From the NCBI RefSeq assembly GCF_000092465.1, contig NC_014205.1:900001-932000 (forward strand): a stretch of 32,000 bases of DNA. Reading direction: 5' to 3'. Source of the stretch: Staphylothermus hellenicus DSM 12710. GTDB taxonomy: Archaea; Thermoproteota; Thermoprotei_A; Sulfolobales; Desulfurococcaceae. The notes under the pieces were generated by a model. It had not been told where the DNA came from. It saw only the letters and a list, made by a program, of their open reading frames with translations, and did not search any database. Below are positions 13,582 through 32,000 of the stretch, piece after piece. Made by a program: the position numbers and the translations under genes. Positions within the stretch are counted from its first letter, which is position 1. Each line of letters begins with the position of its first letter.

Positions 13582-13697
13582 AGAAAAGGTCCCCCGGTCC
13601 GTGAAACAATCATCCCTTCTAAACAGTTTGGTCATCTAGTAGAGGCCTCGGTCATCCCTTTTTCATATTTTTATTAACGGGTGATTTTAAGTTATAT

Positions 13698-24516: not shown

Positions 24517-24762
24517 TCATTGTTTCATTTTATTTATCGGCACTAGTTTCCTCATATGTTTCAAATACATTGGAAGTTCAATTCTAGAAATGACATGAAA
24601 ACCATATTTTTCAGCGTTCCATATTATGTCAGCCTTTATTCTTCTACGCTCTCGTGGTATCAGCGGAGCATCTATAACAACTAGGACATCAACATCGCTT
24701 AATACAGTCAACCTATTCTCAGCTGCTCCGCTAAAAACATAGATTTCCGCATTAGGTAACAA
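24517..24762 (-). CDS. Minimal nucleotidyltransferase-fold protein (MNT-like), N-terminally very short
   Basis: ORF track (TTG start). IYVFSGAAENRLTVLSDVDVLVVI corresponds to the hGS...(D/E)xD strand-turn of Pol-beta-type minimal NTases, but with SG instead of GS and only about 10 residues ahead of it. Confidence 0.6.
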   Translation of the reverse strand: MLPNAEIYVFSGAAENRLTVLSDVDVLVVIDAPLIPRERRRIKADIIWNAEKYGFHVISRIELPMYLKHMRKLVPINKMKQ

Positions 24763-26468: not shown

Positions 26469-26840
26469 GTGGATATACAAGGTTTTAACGGGATCGCCGA
26501 GTTGTTATCGCTTAAACATGTTGGTAAACTTAAATTATTGGCTAGATCAATTGTGTTCCTAGCAGGATATATCTTATCCCCCCTCTCATGGTGGAACGAC
26601 TTATTCGTGAATATACCACTCGCATACTTGCTCGCAACCCTAATCCATAGCCTGGCAGGAATTGATTTCCCAATATTATTCAGCACAGGCTACGCACTAA
26701 CAAATATTGCTGGAATACTAATAATGAAAATAAGCATTACAGGCATCAACAAGAAAAACATGTTGAGAGACCTAATACTAACAATACTCTACTCGATCAC
26801 AGCATACATCATACTAGAAAACATCCCCGGAATACATTAA
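26469..26840 (+). CDS. Small membrane protein (3-4 TM), function unknown
   Basis: ORF track (GTG start). Clear hydrophobic helices (IVFLAGYILSPLSWW, IPLAYLLATLIHSLAGI, ALTNIAGILIM, LILTILYSITAYIIL). The overlapping minus ORF 26399..26686 looks like a shadow, though this is not certain. Confidence 0.55.
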   Translation: MDIQGFNGIAELLSLKHVGKLKLLARSIVFLAGYILSPLSWWNDLFVNIPLAYLLATLIHSLAGIDFPILFSTGYALTNIAGILIMKISITGINKKNMLRDLILTILYSITAYIILENIPGIH

Positions 26841-26895: not shown

Positions 26896-27093
26896 TTACT
26901 TAGCATACTCCTTATATAACCAGCCCTTCTCAGTCCTAACAACAAGCCCAGCCTTCTTCAAATCCTGGAGTCTCCCACGAATAGTATTATAGTTTAGCCC
27001 TGTAATTTTCTGGATCTCCTTGGGAGACAATGGCCTCTTCTCCTTCTTAAGCACCTCTAATATTATCTCCTTCGCGGTCTTCCTCTCACTCAT
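26896..27093 (-). CDS. Small winged-helix DNA-binding protein (65 aa)
   Basis: ORF track 26896..27177. I prefer ATG 27091-27093 (MSERKTAKEIILEVLKKEKRPLSPKEIQKITGLNYNTIRGRLQDLKKAGLVVRTEKGW), with GGGGAG 8 nt upstream. Classic helix-turn-helix-wing layout. Confidence 0.65.
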   Translation of the reverse strand: MSERKTAKEIILEVLKKEKRPLSPKEIQKITGLNYNTIRGRLQDLKKAGLVVRTEKGWLYKEYAK

Positions 27094-27311
27094 AACAATC
27101 TCCCCACAAACAATCCTTAACCACATGATCCTTATGATTTCATGGTTATTAAACTTGATCCCAAACCTAACAACCAAGACAAAGACACAGAGAAATCAAA
27201 GCTAACACCACTAGAAAAACATTATAAACAAACCAGAAACAAAACCACCAAACCAGAAGAAATAAAGGGAAAAGAGGGGGTTCAACACATATTTTGAAAA
27301 GACCAGAAAAC

Positions 27312-27329
27312 GAGAACTCCCCGGTTCTC
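27312..27329. repeat. Hairpin/palindrome motif copy 1: GAGAAC-TCCCCG-GTTCTC
   Basis: Read directly: perfect 6-bp arms with a 6-nt C-rich loop. Same family as copies at 27376, 27614, 27764, 29409 and 30340. Confidence 0.8.
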
Positions 27330-27375
27330 AATATAGATGAAGGGCTTGATCATGTATTAGCCCCCCGCATAATTA

Positions 27376-27394
27376 GGGGAACCGGGGAGTTTCC
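27376..27394. repeat. Hairpin motif copy 2 (opposite orientation): GGGGAAC-CGGGGA-GTTTCC
   Basis: Read directly. The arms pair with one G:U if transcribed. Followed by ATGATC, as in other copies. Confidence 0.75.
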
Positions 27395-27424
27395 ATGATC
27401 TAGACATAATCCAATAGAAGCAGT

Positions 27425-27583
27425 AGCCCCCTCTACATGAAGTATTTTGTAGGAAATCCTAATAATGTATCTTATAAGAATGGAGAGCTGGAAACACCTT
27501 GAGCACCCTATATGTTTTTATAGAATCCCCCTAACAACACTTCAAGGATATGGATTATAACATGATCCATTTATGAGGGGGCT
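27425..27583. repeat. Long-range GC-rich inverted repeat AGCCCCCTC (27425-27433) / GAGGGGGCT (27575-27583)
   Basis: Perfect 9-bp complementarity, read directly. The G/C runs stand out against AT-rich surroundings. Confidence 0.7.
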
Positions 27584-27613
27584 GATGTGTTTAAAAGATA
27601 GTGTTTAAATAGT

Positions 27614-27631
27614 GAGAACCGAGGAGTTCTC
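27614..27631. repeat. Hairpin motif copy 3: GAGAAC-CGAGGA-GTTCTC
   Basis: Read directly: perfect 6-bp arms. Confidence 0.8.
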
Positions 27632-27661
27632 AAAAACATAAGCATCCCAAACAAAAACCAT

Positions 27662-27734
27662 AGCCCCCCTCACCAACTAGGAGAGATGAAAATCCAAGAG
27701 ATATCAATAAACGCTTTTTCATGAATAGGGGGCT
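27662..27734. repeat. GC-rich inverted repeat AGCCCCCCT (27662-27670) / AGGGGGCT (27727-27734)
   Basis: Complementary with one bulged C, about 56-nt loop. The flanking CAT...ATG extends the stem. Confidence 0.65.
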
Positions 27735-27763
27735 TTATGTTTTTACAGGATTAGATCTTGTTT

Positions 27764-27783
27764 GGGGAGCCGGGGGGTTCCCC
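27764..27783. repeat. Hairpin motif copy 4: GGGGAGC-CGGGGG-GTTCCCC
   Basis: Read directly. The arms pair with one G:U. Followed by ATAGATCAAC, which is mirrored at 30331-30340 in the right arm. Confidence 0.75.
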
Positions 27784-27917
27784 ATAGATCAACAAACATT
27801 AACAACCCTTACACCCCCCTCAACAAGAAACAATATCGATACATCTGTAAACAATAATACATAGAGCTTTCTTCTCAGATTTTTCTTTAGAAAAGCCTTG
27901 TATAAAAGTTGTTGGAG

Positions 27918-27923
27918 AAAAAA
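27918..27923 (-). terminator. Oligo-T tract downstream of the frameshifted pilin gene (candidate archaeal terminator)
   Basis: The minus strand reads TTTTTTCTCCAA about 22 nt after the stop. The same TTTTTTCTCCAA string follows the paralogue. Confidence 0.4.
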
Positions 27924-27944
27924 GAATAATGTGAAATATTTGTT

Positions 27945-28019
27945 TTATGGTAGTGTTACTGTTGCTGGATACTGTCCGCCGCTAGCAGTATGAATAAGAA
28001 TACTGACAGTCTCACCACT
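27945..28019. repeat. Left copy of 75-nt near-identical inverted repeat (3' end of frameshifted pilin gene)
   Basis: The reverse complement differs from 30101..30175 at 3 of 75 positions (hand alignment). Encodes SGETVSILIHTASGGQYPATVTLP*. Confidence 0.85.
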
Positions 28020-28735
28020 AGCAAATTCTTCGGTGACAATCGGGTTAAATTCGATTATGAAATCCACACTATCTAATTCACTTCCACTATCACTATCATA
28101 AAGTTTTATGTGCCATGTATAGATACCTGGATTCTCGGGCAACTGTACATTTTGTAAGGACAAATCATCCGATTGACCACTTGCAATTTCCTTTGTATCC
28201 GATGTTGCCGAAGGATTGGTTTCGGGAATCTCAACATAGACATTACGGCTACCCTGCTGTTCATCATTTTTAACCGTTACAGTTAATGTGGCTGTTGTAC
28301 CAGGCCCTCCAATGACTATATCGGGATACTTTGAAATATATACATTTGTATTGGCTGGCTTTTCTCTAGTAGTAGAATGGATCATTATTTGATCATTTAT
28401 TGGTTGGCCCGTGCGTGTTAGATAGAATAGTATTTCTGTTTTCTCTCCAGGGTTTAGTGTTTTGCTGTATGTTATTGTTCCTGGTTTGTTGTTTATGAAT
28501 ATATTGTCTATTGTTGCTGTTTTGTCCCTGTATTCTTAACTATTACATGAACTATCCAGTACTGATTATTACTACTATCTGTTTTGCTTTCAGCATAAGC
28601 ATTTACTACTTCTAGCTTCTCAACACCAGTAAAACTACCTGTTAATCCCGTGATCCACAATGCTACAGCTATGCTGATCGCTATAGCAACTGCTACTATG
28701 ATCACGGTTGCAATAACAGGTGATATAGCCTTCAT
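27945..28735 (-). pseudogene. Type IV pilin-like (class III signal peptide, Pilin_N) protein interrupted by a 1-nt frameshift; carries an extra Ig/CARDB-like module
   Basis: Track ORFs 28508..28735 (MKAISPVIATVIIVAVAIAISIAVALW...VKNTGTKQQQ*) and 27945..28385 are two frames of one gene. The second frame is open from 28530 and reads ...TATIDNIFINNKPG..., collinear with VKNTGTKPVTIDGVFINNKPG of the intact paralogue. Relative to that paralogue, one C of the Pro codon is missing next to 28519. Repaired length is 263 aa. Confidence 0.7.
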
Positions 28736-29408
28736 ATCGCTTACACCTCTTAATTCTCCCTTTTAATTATCCTCGTCATTACTTATTATATCCATGCATA
28801 CATATATGCTTAACTACTTAGATGAAAATTCTTCATGATCATCCAAGTCTATTTAATATGTATATTTTCATGTTTATTCAAAGATCCCATGGTTCTAGAT
28901 AATCTATAAGATATGGATGAGCTACGGATCCATAGAGAGGGATTGCAGATTTGTTCCCATATATGCTTCTTTTGAAAGATCCTAGATACATGTATAGGGT
29001 GCTGTGTCTTTATTAACTATACTGTAATAAGGATCAATGTGGCATGGTTTAGGCTTTAATAATGCTTATGAACTAGGTATTATGTTTCACAATAACATAA
29101 GTATTTATCTCAGCTGATTCATTATGGTTTATCAAGTGTGAAAATACAAAGTAAAATATGTGAAGCATGTTCTTCAACATAATTGTTGTAGTTTATTAGG
29201 AGAAATTGTATCTCTCAGAAAACATACCTCCTCACAGCATATAAAGAGCTTAAACACCACCCATACATTTCTCTCACATACACTATTCTCTTAAATATAA
29301 GATAGAATGAAACATGCATTACAACTAGCATTTACTAGGTTTTATCAGCCCCATCCCTCACTATCGGAAGAGGGGATTGGAGAAGGGTAAAGAACTCTCT
29401 CACAAAGT

Positions 29409-29425
29409 GGAAACCCCCGGTTCCC
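29409..29425. repeat. Hairpin motif copy 5: GGAAAC-CCCCG-GTTCCC (in the spacer between the two pilin genes)
   Basis: Read directly. GTGGAAACCCCCGGTTCCCATAG compares with the reverse complement of copy 2, ATGGAAACTCCCCGGTTCCCCTAA. Confidence 0.7.
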
Positions 29426-29489
29426 ATAGCATGACCCTGTCCAAAAACACGTAACCCTCTCCCATTAAAAACTATGATCTCTCCTCCCC

Positions 29490-29526
29490 CTGCTTCAGAA
29501 AAAGAAATTGATACTGAGCGAAGCAG
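29490..29526. repeat. Stem-loop CTGCTTC-N23-GAAGCAG in the inter-pilin spacer
   Basis: 7-bp perfect inverted repeat, read directly. About 125 nt upstream of the intact pilin start codon. Confidence 0.55.
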
Positions 29527-29650
29527 TGTTTTGAGACAGGATATAGATAAACATTTAAGCAAAACGTATTAGTTGTATAAAAACATGTATTAGTAATCAT
29601 AAACTTTAAATCATCAGATAAGAAGAATATTAGTATGGGTGATCATTTTT

Positions 29651-30175
29651 ATGAAGGCTGTAGATCCCGTTATTGCAACTGTTATTATTGTTGCTGTTGC
29701 TATTGCTATTAGTATAGCAGTAGCACTATGGATAACAGGATTAACAAGCAGCTTCACAGGCGTTGAGAAACTAGAAATAGTAAACGCATACGTAGTTAAT
29801 GTTGAGGATACTTCTCCTGATGATACAAGTGTAGATCATCCTGGATGGAATATAACTGTAATAGTTAAGAATACTGGGACAAAACCAGTAACAATAGATG
29901 GAGTATTCATAAACAATAAGCCTGGAGACGCTGGTAAAGTATATACCAAATATGTTTCTAATCCTTCTAGTGGTAATCCACATGATACAAATCCGGTGGG
30001 AGCAGGTTTAACAATAAATCCTGGGGAACAGAAAACATTATACTTTTATCTAAGTACTGTGGAAAATGACTCGAATAGTCCTGTAAGCGATAAATTCTCT
30101 AGTGGTGAGACTGTTAGTATTGTTATTCATACTGCTAGCGGTGGACAGTATCCAGCAACAGTAACACTACCATAA
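29651..30175 (+). CDS. Type IV pilin-like secreted protein (class III signal peptide, Pilin_N/DUF1628-type N-terminus)
   Basis: ORF track 29639..30175. I prefer ATG 29651 (MKA/VDPVIATVIIVAVAIAISIAVALWITG), which gives the short basic leader plus hydrophobic helix typical of prepilin-peptidase substrates. GGGTGA lies 9 nt upstream. Confidence 0.8.
   Translation: MKAVDPVIATVIIVAVAIAISIAVALWITGLTSSFTGVEKLEIVNAYVVNVEDTSPDDTSVDHPGWNITVIVKNTGTKPVTIDGVFINNKPGDAGKVYTKYVSNPSSGNPHDTNPVGAGLTINPGEQKTLYFYLSTVENDSNSPVSDKFSSGETVSIVIHTASGGQYPATVTLP
30101..30175. repeat. Right copy of 75-nt near-identical inverted repeat (3' end of intact pilin gene)
   Basis: 72/75 identical to the reverse complement of 27945..28019. 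Encodes SGETVSIVIHTASGGQYPATVTLP*. Confidence 0.85.
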
Positions 30176-30198
30176 GAAAGATAGAAGCTATTAAATAA

Positions 30199-30204
30199 TT
30201 TTTT
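30199..30204 (+). terminator. Oligo-T tract downstream of the intact pilin gene (candidate archaeal terminator)
   Basis: TTTTTTCTCCAA about 24 nt after the stop codon, conserved with the left arm. Confidence 0.4.
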
Positions 30205-30311
30205 CTCCAATATTTTTTCAGAGGGCTTTTCTTGAAAATATATTTGAGAGAAGCGTCTACGCATCGTTGTTTATGGTTGTATTGTTAATATGGTTTCTTG
30301 TTAAGGGGACG

Positions 30312-30529
30312 TGGGGGATTGCGATTTTTGTTGATCTATGGAAACTCCCTGTTCTCATTGATCAATGATTAATTCTTAACCGTACATGCGCCCTCAATGA
30401 ACTGTTTTTGCTGATGTCCTAGAGTCTTAATTGATGAGAGAATTAGGAGTTCATTTACATTTGTTATGGTTTGTTAGAAATCACTGATTTCCCGAATAGG
30501 TACAATGATCAAGTATGTTGCAACCCCCA
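30312..30529. repeat. GC-run inverted repeat TGGGGGATTGC (30312-30322) / GCAACCCCCA (30520-30529)
   Basis: Complementary with one bulged A. Lies in the flank downstream of the intact pilin gene. Confidence 0.55.
30340..30356. repeat. Hairpin motif copy 6: GGAAAC-TCCCTG-TTCTC (downstream of intact pilin gene)
   Basis: Read directly. It is the positional counterpart of copy 4 in the inverted duplication (shared GTTGATCTATGG context). Confidence 0.7.
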
Positions 30530-30593
30530 TATCTATGGAGTGCTGGGATTTTATTGTGTTTTGAAGTGCTTTGTATTTTTCCTGTATATTTGA

Positions 30594-32000
30594 TTAAGCG
30601 GTCTTTTGTTTTATGTGTTTTTGTATTTTTATGGTTAAGTATGCTGTGATGGTTGTTAATATGATTGTTGGGAGGGCTGAGAAGTGTATGATGTAGAAGC
30701 TCCATAGGCTGTGGTTTCCTATTATGTATAGGGTTAGGTACATGGTCCATATGGAGTAATATGATAGTAGGAGTTTTCTAAGCTTATCTATTCTTATAGT
30801 CCATGGCATAGTTATTATTCCTAGAATGAATCCACATAGGTAAACTATTGGTAAACCCATGCATTTCACTGGTTGATGATTTACTGGGTTTATCCATAAG
30901 GTGAAAGATTGCCTGCCTAGAAGCCAGTCTATCGGTGAAGATGAAATTGATCCTATGCTTTTTGTCGATAAGTGCCAATGTATAGCATCTACTATGGATG
31001 CTTGGAACCATTTCTGGAACCCATAATAGTTTATGAAAGGAACCGAGAACAGTATTAATAGTAATGGGAACACTACATAGTATCTGAGCAACGTTCCGAA
31101 AGCGTGTCTTAACTTGTAAAGAATATCTCCTCTTTGAAAGAATCCCTCAATGAATTCAGCTGGTGCAATGAATAATCCAGAAAATTTTATAAGACCTGCT
31201 AAGCTGAACAGAACTGTTCTAGCCACACTGGTTTTGAGTGAAGTGTATGGATATTTTATGAATACATAAACACCAACAACTGTAAATACTGCTAGGAAGG
31301 GATCTAGCATCGCTAATACTCCAACAGTGTGGTATGTATTATCAAAATACATGATAATAGGTGTTATGAGAGACAATAAGACAGCATGTTTTCCTCTAAG
31401 GAAAACTCTGAGTATCTCATATGTTATGAGATATGAGAATGAATATATGAGAGCTGTTGAAACAATACTTGGAATCCTCCAAGAAGCCGGGTTATCGCCT
31501 AATAAAACAATAGATAGCATAATAAAATACTTACCTAGAGGAGGATGTTCAAGGTTAAAGTATTCATTAATACCCCCCTTATCAGGCAAAGCCCATCCAG
31601 GAATAACATCTAAAACACTATAATTTAACCTATTAAAATCCCTAACAACATCGTTGATGGAGCAATTCTTCTTTAGAGAAACATATACAGCATTCAAACC
31701 ACCAACATATAAGCTCCTAGTAAAACTACGATTATCCTTCACAACAGTAACCCTAGCAACAAGTGAACCCCTATATTCATCTTCAACAAGACTAAAACAT
31801 AGCTGACCAGAAACACCATTTAAAATAGATGTATTAAAAGGCTTATCCAATACAACAGTATATAATGAACCAGCAGAACTATTCACCCTAATAGAGTCGT
31901 AACCAAAAATCTTATACAAAATATTCCTAGCAGAAGAAACATACCAAACCTCATCAGAGACATAACAACTCTTAAAACCAAAACCACGAAACAACTCATA
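30594..32000 (-). CDS. GT-C fold glycosyltransferase of the PMT/GT39-like (dolichyl/polyprenyl-phosphate-sugar dependent) family; 5' end beyond window
   Basis: ORF track 30594..31994; the frame stays open to the window edge. Loop-1 acidic motif SDEVWY, hallmark EHPPLGKY followed by WRIPS, more than 8 TM helices, and a late SSSPIDWLLGR block, as in PMT-family enzymes. Confidence 0.75.
   Translation of the reverse strand, partial: YELFRGFGFKSCYVSDEVWYVSSARNILYKIFGYDSIRVNSSAGSLYTVVLDKPFNTSILNGVSGQLCFSLVEDEYRGSLVARVTVVKDNRSFTRSLYVGGLNAVYVSLKKNCSINDVVRDFNRLNYSVLDVIPGWALPDKGGINEYFNLEHPPLGKYFIMLSIVLLGDNPASWRIPSIVSTALIYSFSYLITYEILRVFLRGKHAVLLSLITPIIMYFDNTYHTVGVLAMLDPFLAVFTVVGVYVFIKYPYTSLKTSVARTVLFSLAGLIKFSGLFIAPAEFIEGFFQRGDILYKLRHAFGTLLRYYVVFPLLLILFSVPFINYYGFQKWFQASIVDAIHWHLSTKSIGSISSSPIDWLLGRQSFTLWINPVNHQPVKCMGLPIVYLCGFILGIITMPWTIRIDKLRKLLLSYYSIWTMYLTLYIIGNHSLWSFYIIHFSALPTIILTTITAYLTIKIQKHIKQKTA

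Follow-up and report, generated by a model that had tools for sequence, protein, structure and literature searches.

The type IV pilin locus of the hyperthermophilic archaeon Staphylothermus hellenicus DSM 12710 carries six copies of an 18-bp dyad with the consensus RRGAAC-CGGGGR-GTTCYY, and each of these dyads is the exact centre of a two-fold-symmetric module of ~100 bp that consists of a G-run, the dyad and a C-run. The locus lies in a stretch of 32,000 nt (NC_014205.1, positions 900,001 to 932,000; G+C content 36.9%), which we call the window and in which positions are counted unless another contig is named. The geometry of the module is fixed, its parts are conserved within the genus, and there is no covariation of the RNA type. 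Judged from its sequence, the module resembles a DNA site bound by protein more than it does an RNA hairpin. The explanation we favour, tentatively and in the awareness that it may well prove wrong, is that it is a cis-acting double-stranded DNA site on which a symmetric protein complex would assemble. An earlier note, made from the letters of the window, had described the six palindromes and had offered as possible roles an operator for a dimeric winged-helix protein, a stable RNA hairpin, or the termini of a degraded miniature mobile element.

The dyads and the boxes around them

The copies, E1 to E6 in order of position, lie at 27312-27329 (E1, GAGAACTCCCCGGTTCTC), 27377-27394 (E2, GGGAACCGGGGAGTTTCC), 27614-27631 (E3, GAGAACCGAGGAGTTCTC), 27765-27782 (E4, GGGAGCCGGGGGGTTCCC), 29409-29425 (E5) and 30340-30356 (E6), the last two being 17 nt long with a 5-nt loop. 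Four of these start positions (27312, 27614, 29409 and 30340) are those of the earlier note, whereas it had given E2 and E4 one extra G each, at 27376 and 27764. The copies do occur in both orientations, as it had said, with the G-rich loop on the plus strand in E2, E3 and E4 and on the minus strand in E1 (CGGGGA), E5 and E6; the flank GATC(W)ATGG, which it had described as frequent, is present at E2, E4 and E6 and in part at E5. The consensus of the 5' flank of the dyad is TTnTG. Successive copies are spaced irregularly, by 65, 237, 151, 1644 and 931 nt, and the Rfam search returned no family of CRISPR repeats, so that a CRISPR array was rejected.

All six copies are real and far beyond chance: the pattern GRRARC-N6-GTTYYC has seven strand-matches in the window, compared to 0.09 ± 0.35 in 100 dinucleotide shuffles. 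A scan that allows G:U pairs and loops of 4-7 nt found five fully paired copies and nothing comparable elsewhere in the window, and E6, which has one A.C mismatch and one G.T pair on either strand, is recovered once one mismatch is permitted. With a position weight matrix built from 12 copies of the family, the six window copies score 22-32 bits and the next-best window site 16.7 bits; over the 504 kb scanned with this matrix, no member scores below 22 bits and no background site above 17.6 bits, which leaves a clean gap. The remaining 29 kb of the window thus contain no further copy, as the earlier note had judged by eye, and the string near 13590 that it had called merely reminiscent is not a copy. 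Because no background site reaches 22 bits, the claim that the motif is confined to the pilin locus holds for the window, where all six dyads fall within three non-coding stretches of that locus, 27094-27944 (850 bp), 28736-29650 (915 bp) and 30176-30593 (418 bp). Within the half-sites, positions 4-6 (AAC) are unchanged in 23-24 of 24 and position 2 accepts G, A, T or C, while the CGGGGR centre is kept, with minor changes, in all 12 copies. The two half-sites are dyad-symmetric and about one helical turn apart, which is the spacing of an operator, and the dyad of E4 can be extended to 8 bp around a GGGG loop.

Alignment of the six copies together with their flanks, oriented by the G-rich loop, brought out a feature that is new to this analysis and absent from the earlier reading: a G-run box, TGAGGGGGCT, lies ~43 bp to one side of the dyad, and its complement lies ~43 bp to the other. 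Each of the six window copies has its two runs on opposite sides, the G-run 42.5-45 bp and the C-run 41.5-44 bp from the dyad centre, and among the Staphylothermus copies the G-run is found at -42.5 to -45 in 11 of 13 and the C-run at +41.5 to +47.5 in 13 of 13. Information content is ~1.5 bits per column in the dyad, peaks again at the G- and C-runs and falls to ~0.2 bits in the spacers. Strict pairs of four Gs and four Cs (G4...C4) at a distance of 80-92 nt number three in the 32 kb, each with a dyad exactly midway, against a mean of 0.35 in shuffles. From this strict geometry, and from the restriction of the information to three islands, it follows that each copy is a two-fold symmetric module of ~100 bp. 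The distance of 43.5 bp corresponds to ~4.1 helical turns, and a few alternative G- or C-runs, at E6, at copy c of a related contig (L193) and in S. marinus F1, lie ~10 bp, that is, one turn, closer to the dyad.

Oriented in this way, module E1 occupies 27268-27375 on the minus strand, with a G-run at 27276-27280 of the plus strand (42.5 bp from the centre) and a C-run at 27361-27366 (43 bp); E2 occupies 27333-27437 on the plus strand, with a weak G-run at 27342-27344 and a C-run at 27427-27431. E3 (27570-27677, plus; G-run 27577-27581, C-run 27664-27669) has outer boxes that form an 11-bp inverted repeat (TGAGGGGGCT / AGCCCCCCTCA), and E4 (27719-27826, plus) has its runs at 27728-27732 and 27814-27819. 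On the minus strand, E5 (29362-29470) has a plus-strand G-run at 29372-29375 and C-runs at 29455-29463, and E6 (30300-30402) has two plus-strand G-runs, at 30305-30308 (41.5 bp) and 30313-30317 (33 bp), and a C-run at 30391-30393. Some neighbouring modules have a box in common, and there is an overlap of ~30 bp between E1 and E2. We also considered that the G-box might be a remnant of a pilin start (ATGAAGGCT vs ATGAGGGGGCT), and rejected this because the opposite box has no ATG.

The pilin locus and the distribution of the module

At lower coordinates than the first dyad lie genes for an HD phosphohydrolase (ADI32069; 24773-26356, minus strand), a DUF7980 membrane protein (26469-26840, plus) and a winged-helix protein of 65 amino acids, whose best Pfam match is HTH_11 and which is a candidate binding protein (ADI32071; 26896-27093, minus); E1 is ~220 nt from its ATG. 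In type IV pilin gene A' (27945-28735, minus) the reading frame is broken in two by a 1-nt deletion near 28510 (GGGACAAAAC-AGC vs GGGACAAAACCAGT), and the gene is either a pseudogene or the product of a homopolymer sequencing error; pilin gene B (29651-30175, plus) is intact and encodes 174 amino acids. The two pilin genes form a head-to-head inverted duplication in which the N-terminal ends are 79% and the C-terminal ends 88% identical and the middle is hypervariable. Beyond them lies a gene for a PMT-like family 39 glycosyltransferase (GT39; 30594-32000, minus), which extends 20 codons past the window end. E4 follows the stop of the frameshifted pilin gene at a distance of ~125 nt. E5 is 226-242 nt upstream of the start codon of pilin B, where the two pilin genes diverge, and E6 lies where pilin B and GT39 converge. 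A paralogous pair, E4 and E6 are 72% identical over 155 nt, inside an inverted duplication that includes both pilin 3' ends; from its dyad towards lower coordinates, E1 is 67-68% identical over 120-140 nt to copy c of L193 and to the S. marinus F1 copy. A role of the dyads as terminators was rejected: T-runs right after the pilin stops already fit archaeal terminators, and only one dyad precedes a T-run. The non-coding stretches hold no significant trace of decayed pilin genes, and the window holds no tRNA gene or tRNA fragment that might be left over from an attachment site.

A second short palindrome is also concentrated here, with five of the ten CATGATC sites of the 32 kb falling in 27124-28840. 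Its occurrences, at 27121-27144, 27348, 27394, 27561, 28835-28842 and 29639-29646, include a perfect ATGATCAT located 100 nt upstream of the start codon of the frameshifted pilin gene, GTGATCAT immediately upstream of that of the intact one, and a CATGA...TCATG dyad within the promoter region of the winged-helix gene; this palindrome may be a separate operator. The neighbourhood of the pilin locus is a variable island. Toxin-antitoxin-type genes have been gained or lost around it among close strains: a pair of a RelE-like nuclease and a DUF2283 protein is found at L193 535-1070, and a minimal nucleotidyltransferase at window 24517-24762 in S. hellenicus has no counterpart in S. marinus F1. Both Logan assemblies of S. 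hellenicus reads end at 27974, inside the C-terminal pilin repeat.

The module family is apparently restricted to Staphylothermus and its close kin, in which it is clustered, and it often, but not always, adjoins pilus or pilin genes. The S. marinus-like contig L193 (HD protein 95% identical) carries orthologues of E2 and E1 plus the third copy, c, after which come the RelE-like/DUF2283 pair and, next, the same winged-helix gene; since its first position falls 1 nt inside the E2 dyad, the contig retains 17 nt of that dyad, all identical to those of S. hellenicus. In S. marinus F1 there is one degenerate copy (GGGAACAGGGAGGTTCTT), with a C-run at +43, at the 3' end of the type IV pilus operon, and no copy between TrkA and the winged-helix gene. 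The T2SSE pilus assembly ATPase encoded upstream of that operon (L199 1-1406) contains an intein, as indicated by Intein_splicing and LAGLIDADG matches. A metagenome-assembled genome (MAG) of Staphylothermus sp. (L200) has three copies within 300 bp, between two tandem pilin genes. In the same MAG a fragment resembling the 3' half of a tRNA, with T-arm and acceptor strand and ending in CCA, lies beside VapBC-like toxin-antitoxin genes (L200 1877-1921); a tRNA finder reports no complete tRNA gene there, and the fragment may be the attachment-site remnant of an integrated element.

Two more groups of copies came from a pattern search of genome contigs with GRGAACCGGGGAGTTYYC, in which the matches listed were mostly chance matches in G+C-rich bacteria. 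In Staphylothermus sp. AUK105 (L093), another MAG, two copies whose boxes are at -44 and +43 lie where a contig starts, next to a radical-SAM gene, and Desulfurococcales archaeon S143_80 (L086), an unclassified MAG, has three in 1.4 kb of non-coding DNA and small open reading frames without pilin genes. On another contig of the latter MAG (L014 2571-2588) the exact 18-mer, with neither a G nor a C box, occurs inside an open reading frame for a surface-protease-like protein of 2062 amino acids, where it encodes ENSPVP; this coding copy may or may not be a coincidence. The independently assembled contigs L193 and L093 both start, at position 1, inside a dyad copy, which could be due to chance, to a longer repeat that breaks assemblies or to sequence heterogeneity at the dyad.

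Elsewhere the searches were negative. Viral contigs gave two chance matches, and phage and plasmid collections none. Relatives with an HD protein 66-80% identical have no copy at the locus, and one with the same pilin-GT39 arrangement has a gap of 42 nt where S. hellenicus has 418 nt including E6. The ~60 kb flanking the Staphylothermus loci contain no module. Because 65 metagenomic pilin loci (306 kb) are likewise without a copy, the motif is not general to this pilin family; a search of the relatives' pilin loci for repeated palindromes gave a sole match (L130), inside pilin coding sequence. Where the module does occur, the number of its copies at the locus differs (6, at least 3, 1 and 3). 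Orthologous copies are 78% identical in the dyad, 81% in the C-box and 55% in the spacer that separates the two, a difference which points to selection on the islands and suggests that this selection is purifying.

Readings of the module

We propose, on the strength of this architecture, that a dimeric sequence-specific DNA-binding protein would sit on the 18-bp dyad, with half-sites RRGAAC, or perhaps GGGAACC around a GGGG centre. Two further contacts might be made at the inverted TGAGGGGGCT boxes, four helical turns to either side and hence on the same face of the helix; contacts of dyad and boxes on one face would make possible a single symmetric complex per module, in which the DNA would be wrapped or looped. 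Adjacent modules would then at times share a box. Clusters of modules would take up long stretches of non-coding DNA where Staphylothermus genomes are variable, here the type IV pilin locus, and their most likely role would be local control or insulation of neighbouring genes, or DNA organisation. Equal arms of ±43 bp, alternative runs ~10 bp closer and free spacers are what is expected of a symmetric protein-DNA complex.

Several observations weigh against this proposal. The winged-helix protein next door, for which the earlier note had suggested that the dyads are operators, is 98.5% identical in S. marinus F1, where the single degenerate copy is 1.4 kb away and separated from the winged-helix gene by another gene, and relatives without any copy within ±10 kb have it at 71-75% identity; since the protein is conserved where the motif is absent, the link to 26896-27093 is weakened, although a protein-binding double-stranded dyad, the other half of that suggestion, is what we still favour. 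Most copies are more than 100-200 nt from start codons, or downstream of genes, positions that archaeal operators do not usually take: E5 and E1 stand at the distances given above, E4 and E6 are downstream of genes, and none of these four overlaps a promoter. A simple symmetric dimer needs neither conservation nor asymmetry of the 4-6-bp centre, CGGGGR, which shows both. The three L086 copies have weak or missing boxes, and the helical phasing is based on few cases.

An RNA or single-stranded DNA hairpin on the G-loop strand, perhaps closed by pairing of the G and C boxes and acting as a processing, stability or protein-binding signal or as a small non-coding RNA, we consider unlikely. The dyad can form a G+C-rich stem of 6-8 bp with a conserved loop sequence, the outer boxes are complementary, and E3 folds well as a whole (z = -5.1); but the other five of the six modules fold no better than shuffles, an RNA does not require the equal ±43 spacing, and the orientation relative to the neighbouring genes is mixed. 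Rfam gives no match at gathering score in the whole window, and at E ≤ 10 over 27100-30500 it gives three chance-level matches, none of them on a dyad. The central stem is all that RNAalifold predicts, and its covariation term is -0.02; among ten ungapped copies, pairing is 91.7% compared to 92.5 ± 1.9% in column shuffles, and the covariation score, 0.222 compared to 0.233, is no better. The earlier note had read the substitutions that keep pairing through G:U as a hint of selection on RNA. G.U pairs do outnumber A.C mismatches by 9:3 on the G-loop strand, but this asymmetry arises because the half-sites vary among purines (RRGAAC). The note had proposed to look for compensatory substitutions across orthologous loci; between E1 of S. 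hellenicus and its L193 orthologue a pair is lost without compensation. Transversions in L200 (GTGAAC, GCGAAC) leave the GAAC core intact but disrupt pairing on both strands. The suggested RNA role is thus not upheld.

The module might, alternatively, be a selfish or neutrally duplicating palindromic repeat, akin to repetitive extragenic palindromes and bacterial interspersed mosaic elements (REP/BIME) or to an old transposable element of the miniature kind with inverted repeats (MITE), lodged without host function in dispensable non-coding DNA; this is possible, though doubtful. Its clustering in the long non-coding DNA of a strain-variable locus, where toxin-antitoxin genes, pilins and GT39 come and go, would fit, as would the variable copy number, the unrelated genes that copies adjoin in other members of the group, and the start of L193 and L093 inside a dyad if this marks an assembly-breaking repeat. 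Identities of 67-72% over 120-155 nt indicate that some copies arose via duplication of longer segments, and S. marinus has been reported to carry IS607-family elements and recently active MITEs of 260 nt (PMC2678158). Dead copies should, however, decay evenly, whereas conservation here takes the form of three short islands at fixed spacing between free spacers; nor can a simple insertion produce the ~30-bp overlap of E1 and E2 or does it suit the sharing of boxes, and the modules do not resemble the reported MITEs in size or activity. No target-site duplications are seen, the window holds no transposase gene, and phage and plasmid collections are without a match. With spacers of nearly zero information and two overlapping modules, the degraded mobile-element termini of the earlier note are not well supported. 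A site-specific recombinase, whose core sites the dyads would be, seems rather improbable. In this case the arms would bind the enzyme, the asymmetric centre would set polarity, the boxes would be accessory, and the outcome would be inversion, excision or exchange of pilin cassettes; inverted arms around a conserved asymmetric 4-6-bp centre, in both orientations, have the right form. Pilin B and its promoter (931 bp) are enclosed by the direct repeats E5 and E6, pilin A' has E4 and E5 in inverted orientation on its two sides, and the locus is hypervariable among strains. Homology between E1 and S. marinus F1 begins exactly at the edge of the dyad and runs in one direction only, the other side in S. 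marinus F1 being the last gene of the pilus operon, and two contigs end inside a dyad. Yet this is a single possible breakpoint coincidence, the arms are merely 6-7 bp, no genes lie between E1 and E4, and there is no recombinase gene in the window or in the neighbouring regions of the relatives; both S. hellenicus Logan assemblies, moreover, run unbroken through E1-E4 and end at the pilin coding repeat instead. That the modules belong to an undescribed recombination system of hyperthermophiles which moves, inverts or exchanges cassettes such as pilins, toxin-antitoxin pairs and the glycosyltransferase is a bolder suggestion, and we hold it to be quite improbable. We give hardly any credence to the idea that the modules are repeats like the origin recognition boxes of a replication origin, whether chromosomal or captured. 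In archaea such boxes include both a short dyad and a G-string, and dyads and G-strings in both orientations in long non-coding regions recall that layout, but the G-run here is 43 bp from the dyad and does not adjoin it. No Orc1/Cdc6 or WhiP gene is in the window, there is no notable switch in GC skew, S. marinus F1 keeps one degenerate copy at the locus, and the clusters of the relatives are at several unrelated loci.

Repeated, selectively maintained non-coding elements have rarely been described in Crenarchaeota, and three conserved islands, spaced in helical phase within a 100-bp module, would imply a dedicated DNA-binding machinery that is not yet known. Should the module control or insulate the pilin genes, it would offer a handle on the regulation of surface filaments in a hyperthermophile that grows as aggregates. 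Were it a recombination site, it would be part of the first archaeal cassette-shuffling system, with shufflon- or integron-like variation of Staphylothermus type IV pili; as a selfish repeat, it would extend REP/BIME-like elements to archaea.

Comparison with known systems

The module is a genus-restricted three-part palindromic DNA element, unmatched to any described family that we found. Literature searches returned nothing on it, and the remark of the earlier note that no nameable motif family fits holds as far as those searches and Rfam reached. Each of the systems to which it can be compared shares some of its features and lacks others.

Like the REP/BIME elements, the modules contain short, G+C-rich, imperfect intergenic palindromes that are clustered, occur in both orientations, are genus-specific and often lie between convergent genes. 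Related MAGs have clusters at other loci, which shows no more than that the element is not tied to a single locus. REP/BIME elements are bacterial, however, whereas the module is archaeal; it has TTnTG rather than a GTAG-type tetranucleotide at the 5' side and no RAYT transposase nearby, it is built of three parts with fixed 43-bp arms, and its copy number appears to be low in the loci examined. An element of ~100 bp, bounded by inverted G/C boxes and repeated in a genus that has MITEs, is also reminiscent of these, but the module interiors are unconserved (~0.2 bits per column, even though some pairs align at 67-72%), modules overlap, and flanking target-site duplications are not seen. From the 260-nt MITEs of S. 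marinus, as they are described (PMC2678158), the modules differ in size and in conservation.

With the recombination sites attC, sfx, Tn3 res and Xer dif the module shares inverted arms around an asymmetric centre, with integron attC also a total length of ~100 bp, conserved outer boxes and a variable interior, and with the R64 shufflon the association with a variable pilin locus. In contrast to all of these, it has very short arms and no recombinase nearby, its conserved part is central and not only terminal, and rearrangement is only hypothetical here. In the pilin antigenic variation of Neisseria, a G-quadruplex (G4) sequence lies upstream, and a Sma/Cla repeat downstream of the pilin copies. 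The S. hellenicus locus likewise has conserved G-run repeats downstream of pilin copies, one intact and one defective copy, and a hypervariable middle in the family. It differs in having no four-run G4 motif, in that the modules of relatives are also found away from pilin genes, and in that the pilin copies are only 79-88% identical in their conserved ends, so that there has been no recent conversion.

Operators bound by winged-helix proteins of archaea and bacteria correspond to the protein-binding reading. TATCAC-N5-GTGATA of the TrmB family and GGAA-N6-TTCC of NrpR are examples. The dyad resembles such operators in having two 6-7-bp half-sites ~11-12 bp apart, centre to centre, in lying in non-coding DNA and in being adjoined by a small HTH_11 gene. 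It is unlike them in that six copies extend over 3 kb and are mostly distant from promoters, in its conserved and asymmetric centre, in the extra boxes at ±43 bp and in the conservation of the adjoining regulator where the motif is absent. Nearly the same dyad is found beside an HTH_11-WYL gene in Chloroflexota. Three MAGs of that phylum (L018 1253-1404, L081 1164-1314 and L122 2076-2228) have two inverted copies of GGGAACCGGGG[A/T]GTTCCC, 133-135 nt apart; the pair in L018 is in the divergent region between the gene of an HTH_11-WYL-WCX regulator and cas1-cas2-cas4, and the downstream gene of L122 opens with nearly the same protein sequence. The arrangement resembles a conserved pair of operators for a CRISPR-Cas regulator, and it would show, by analogy and not by homology, that a dyad of this kind can occupy the operator position of an HTH_11 protein.

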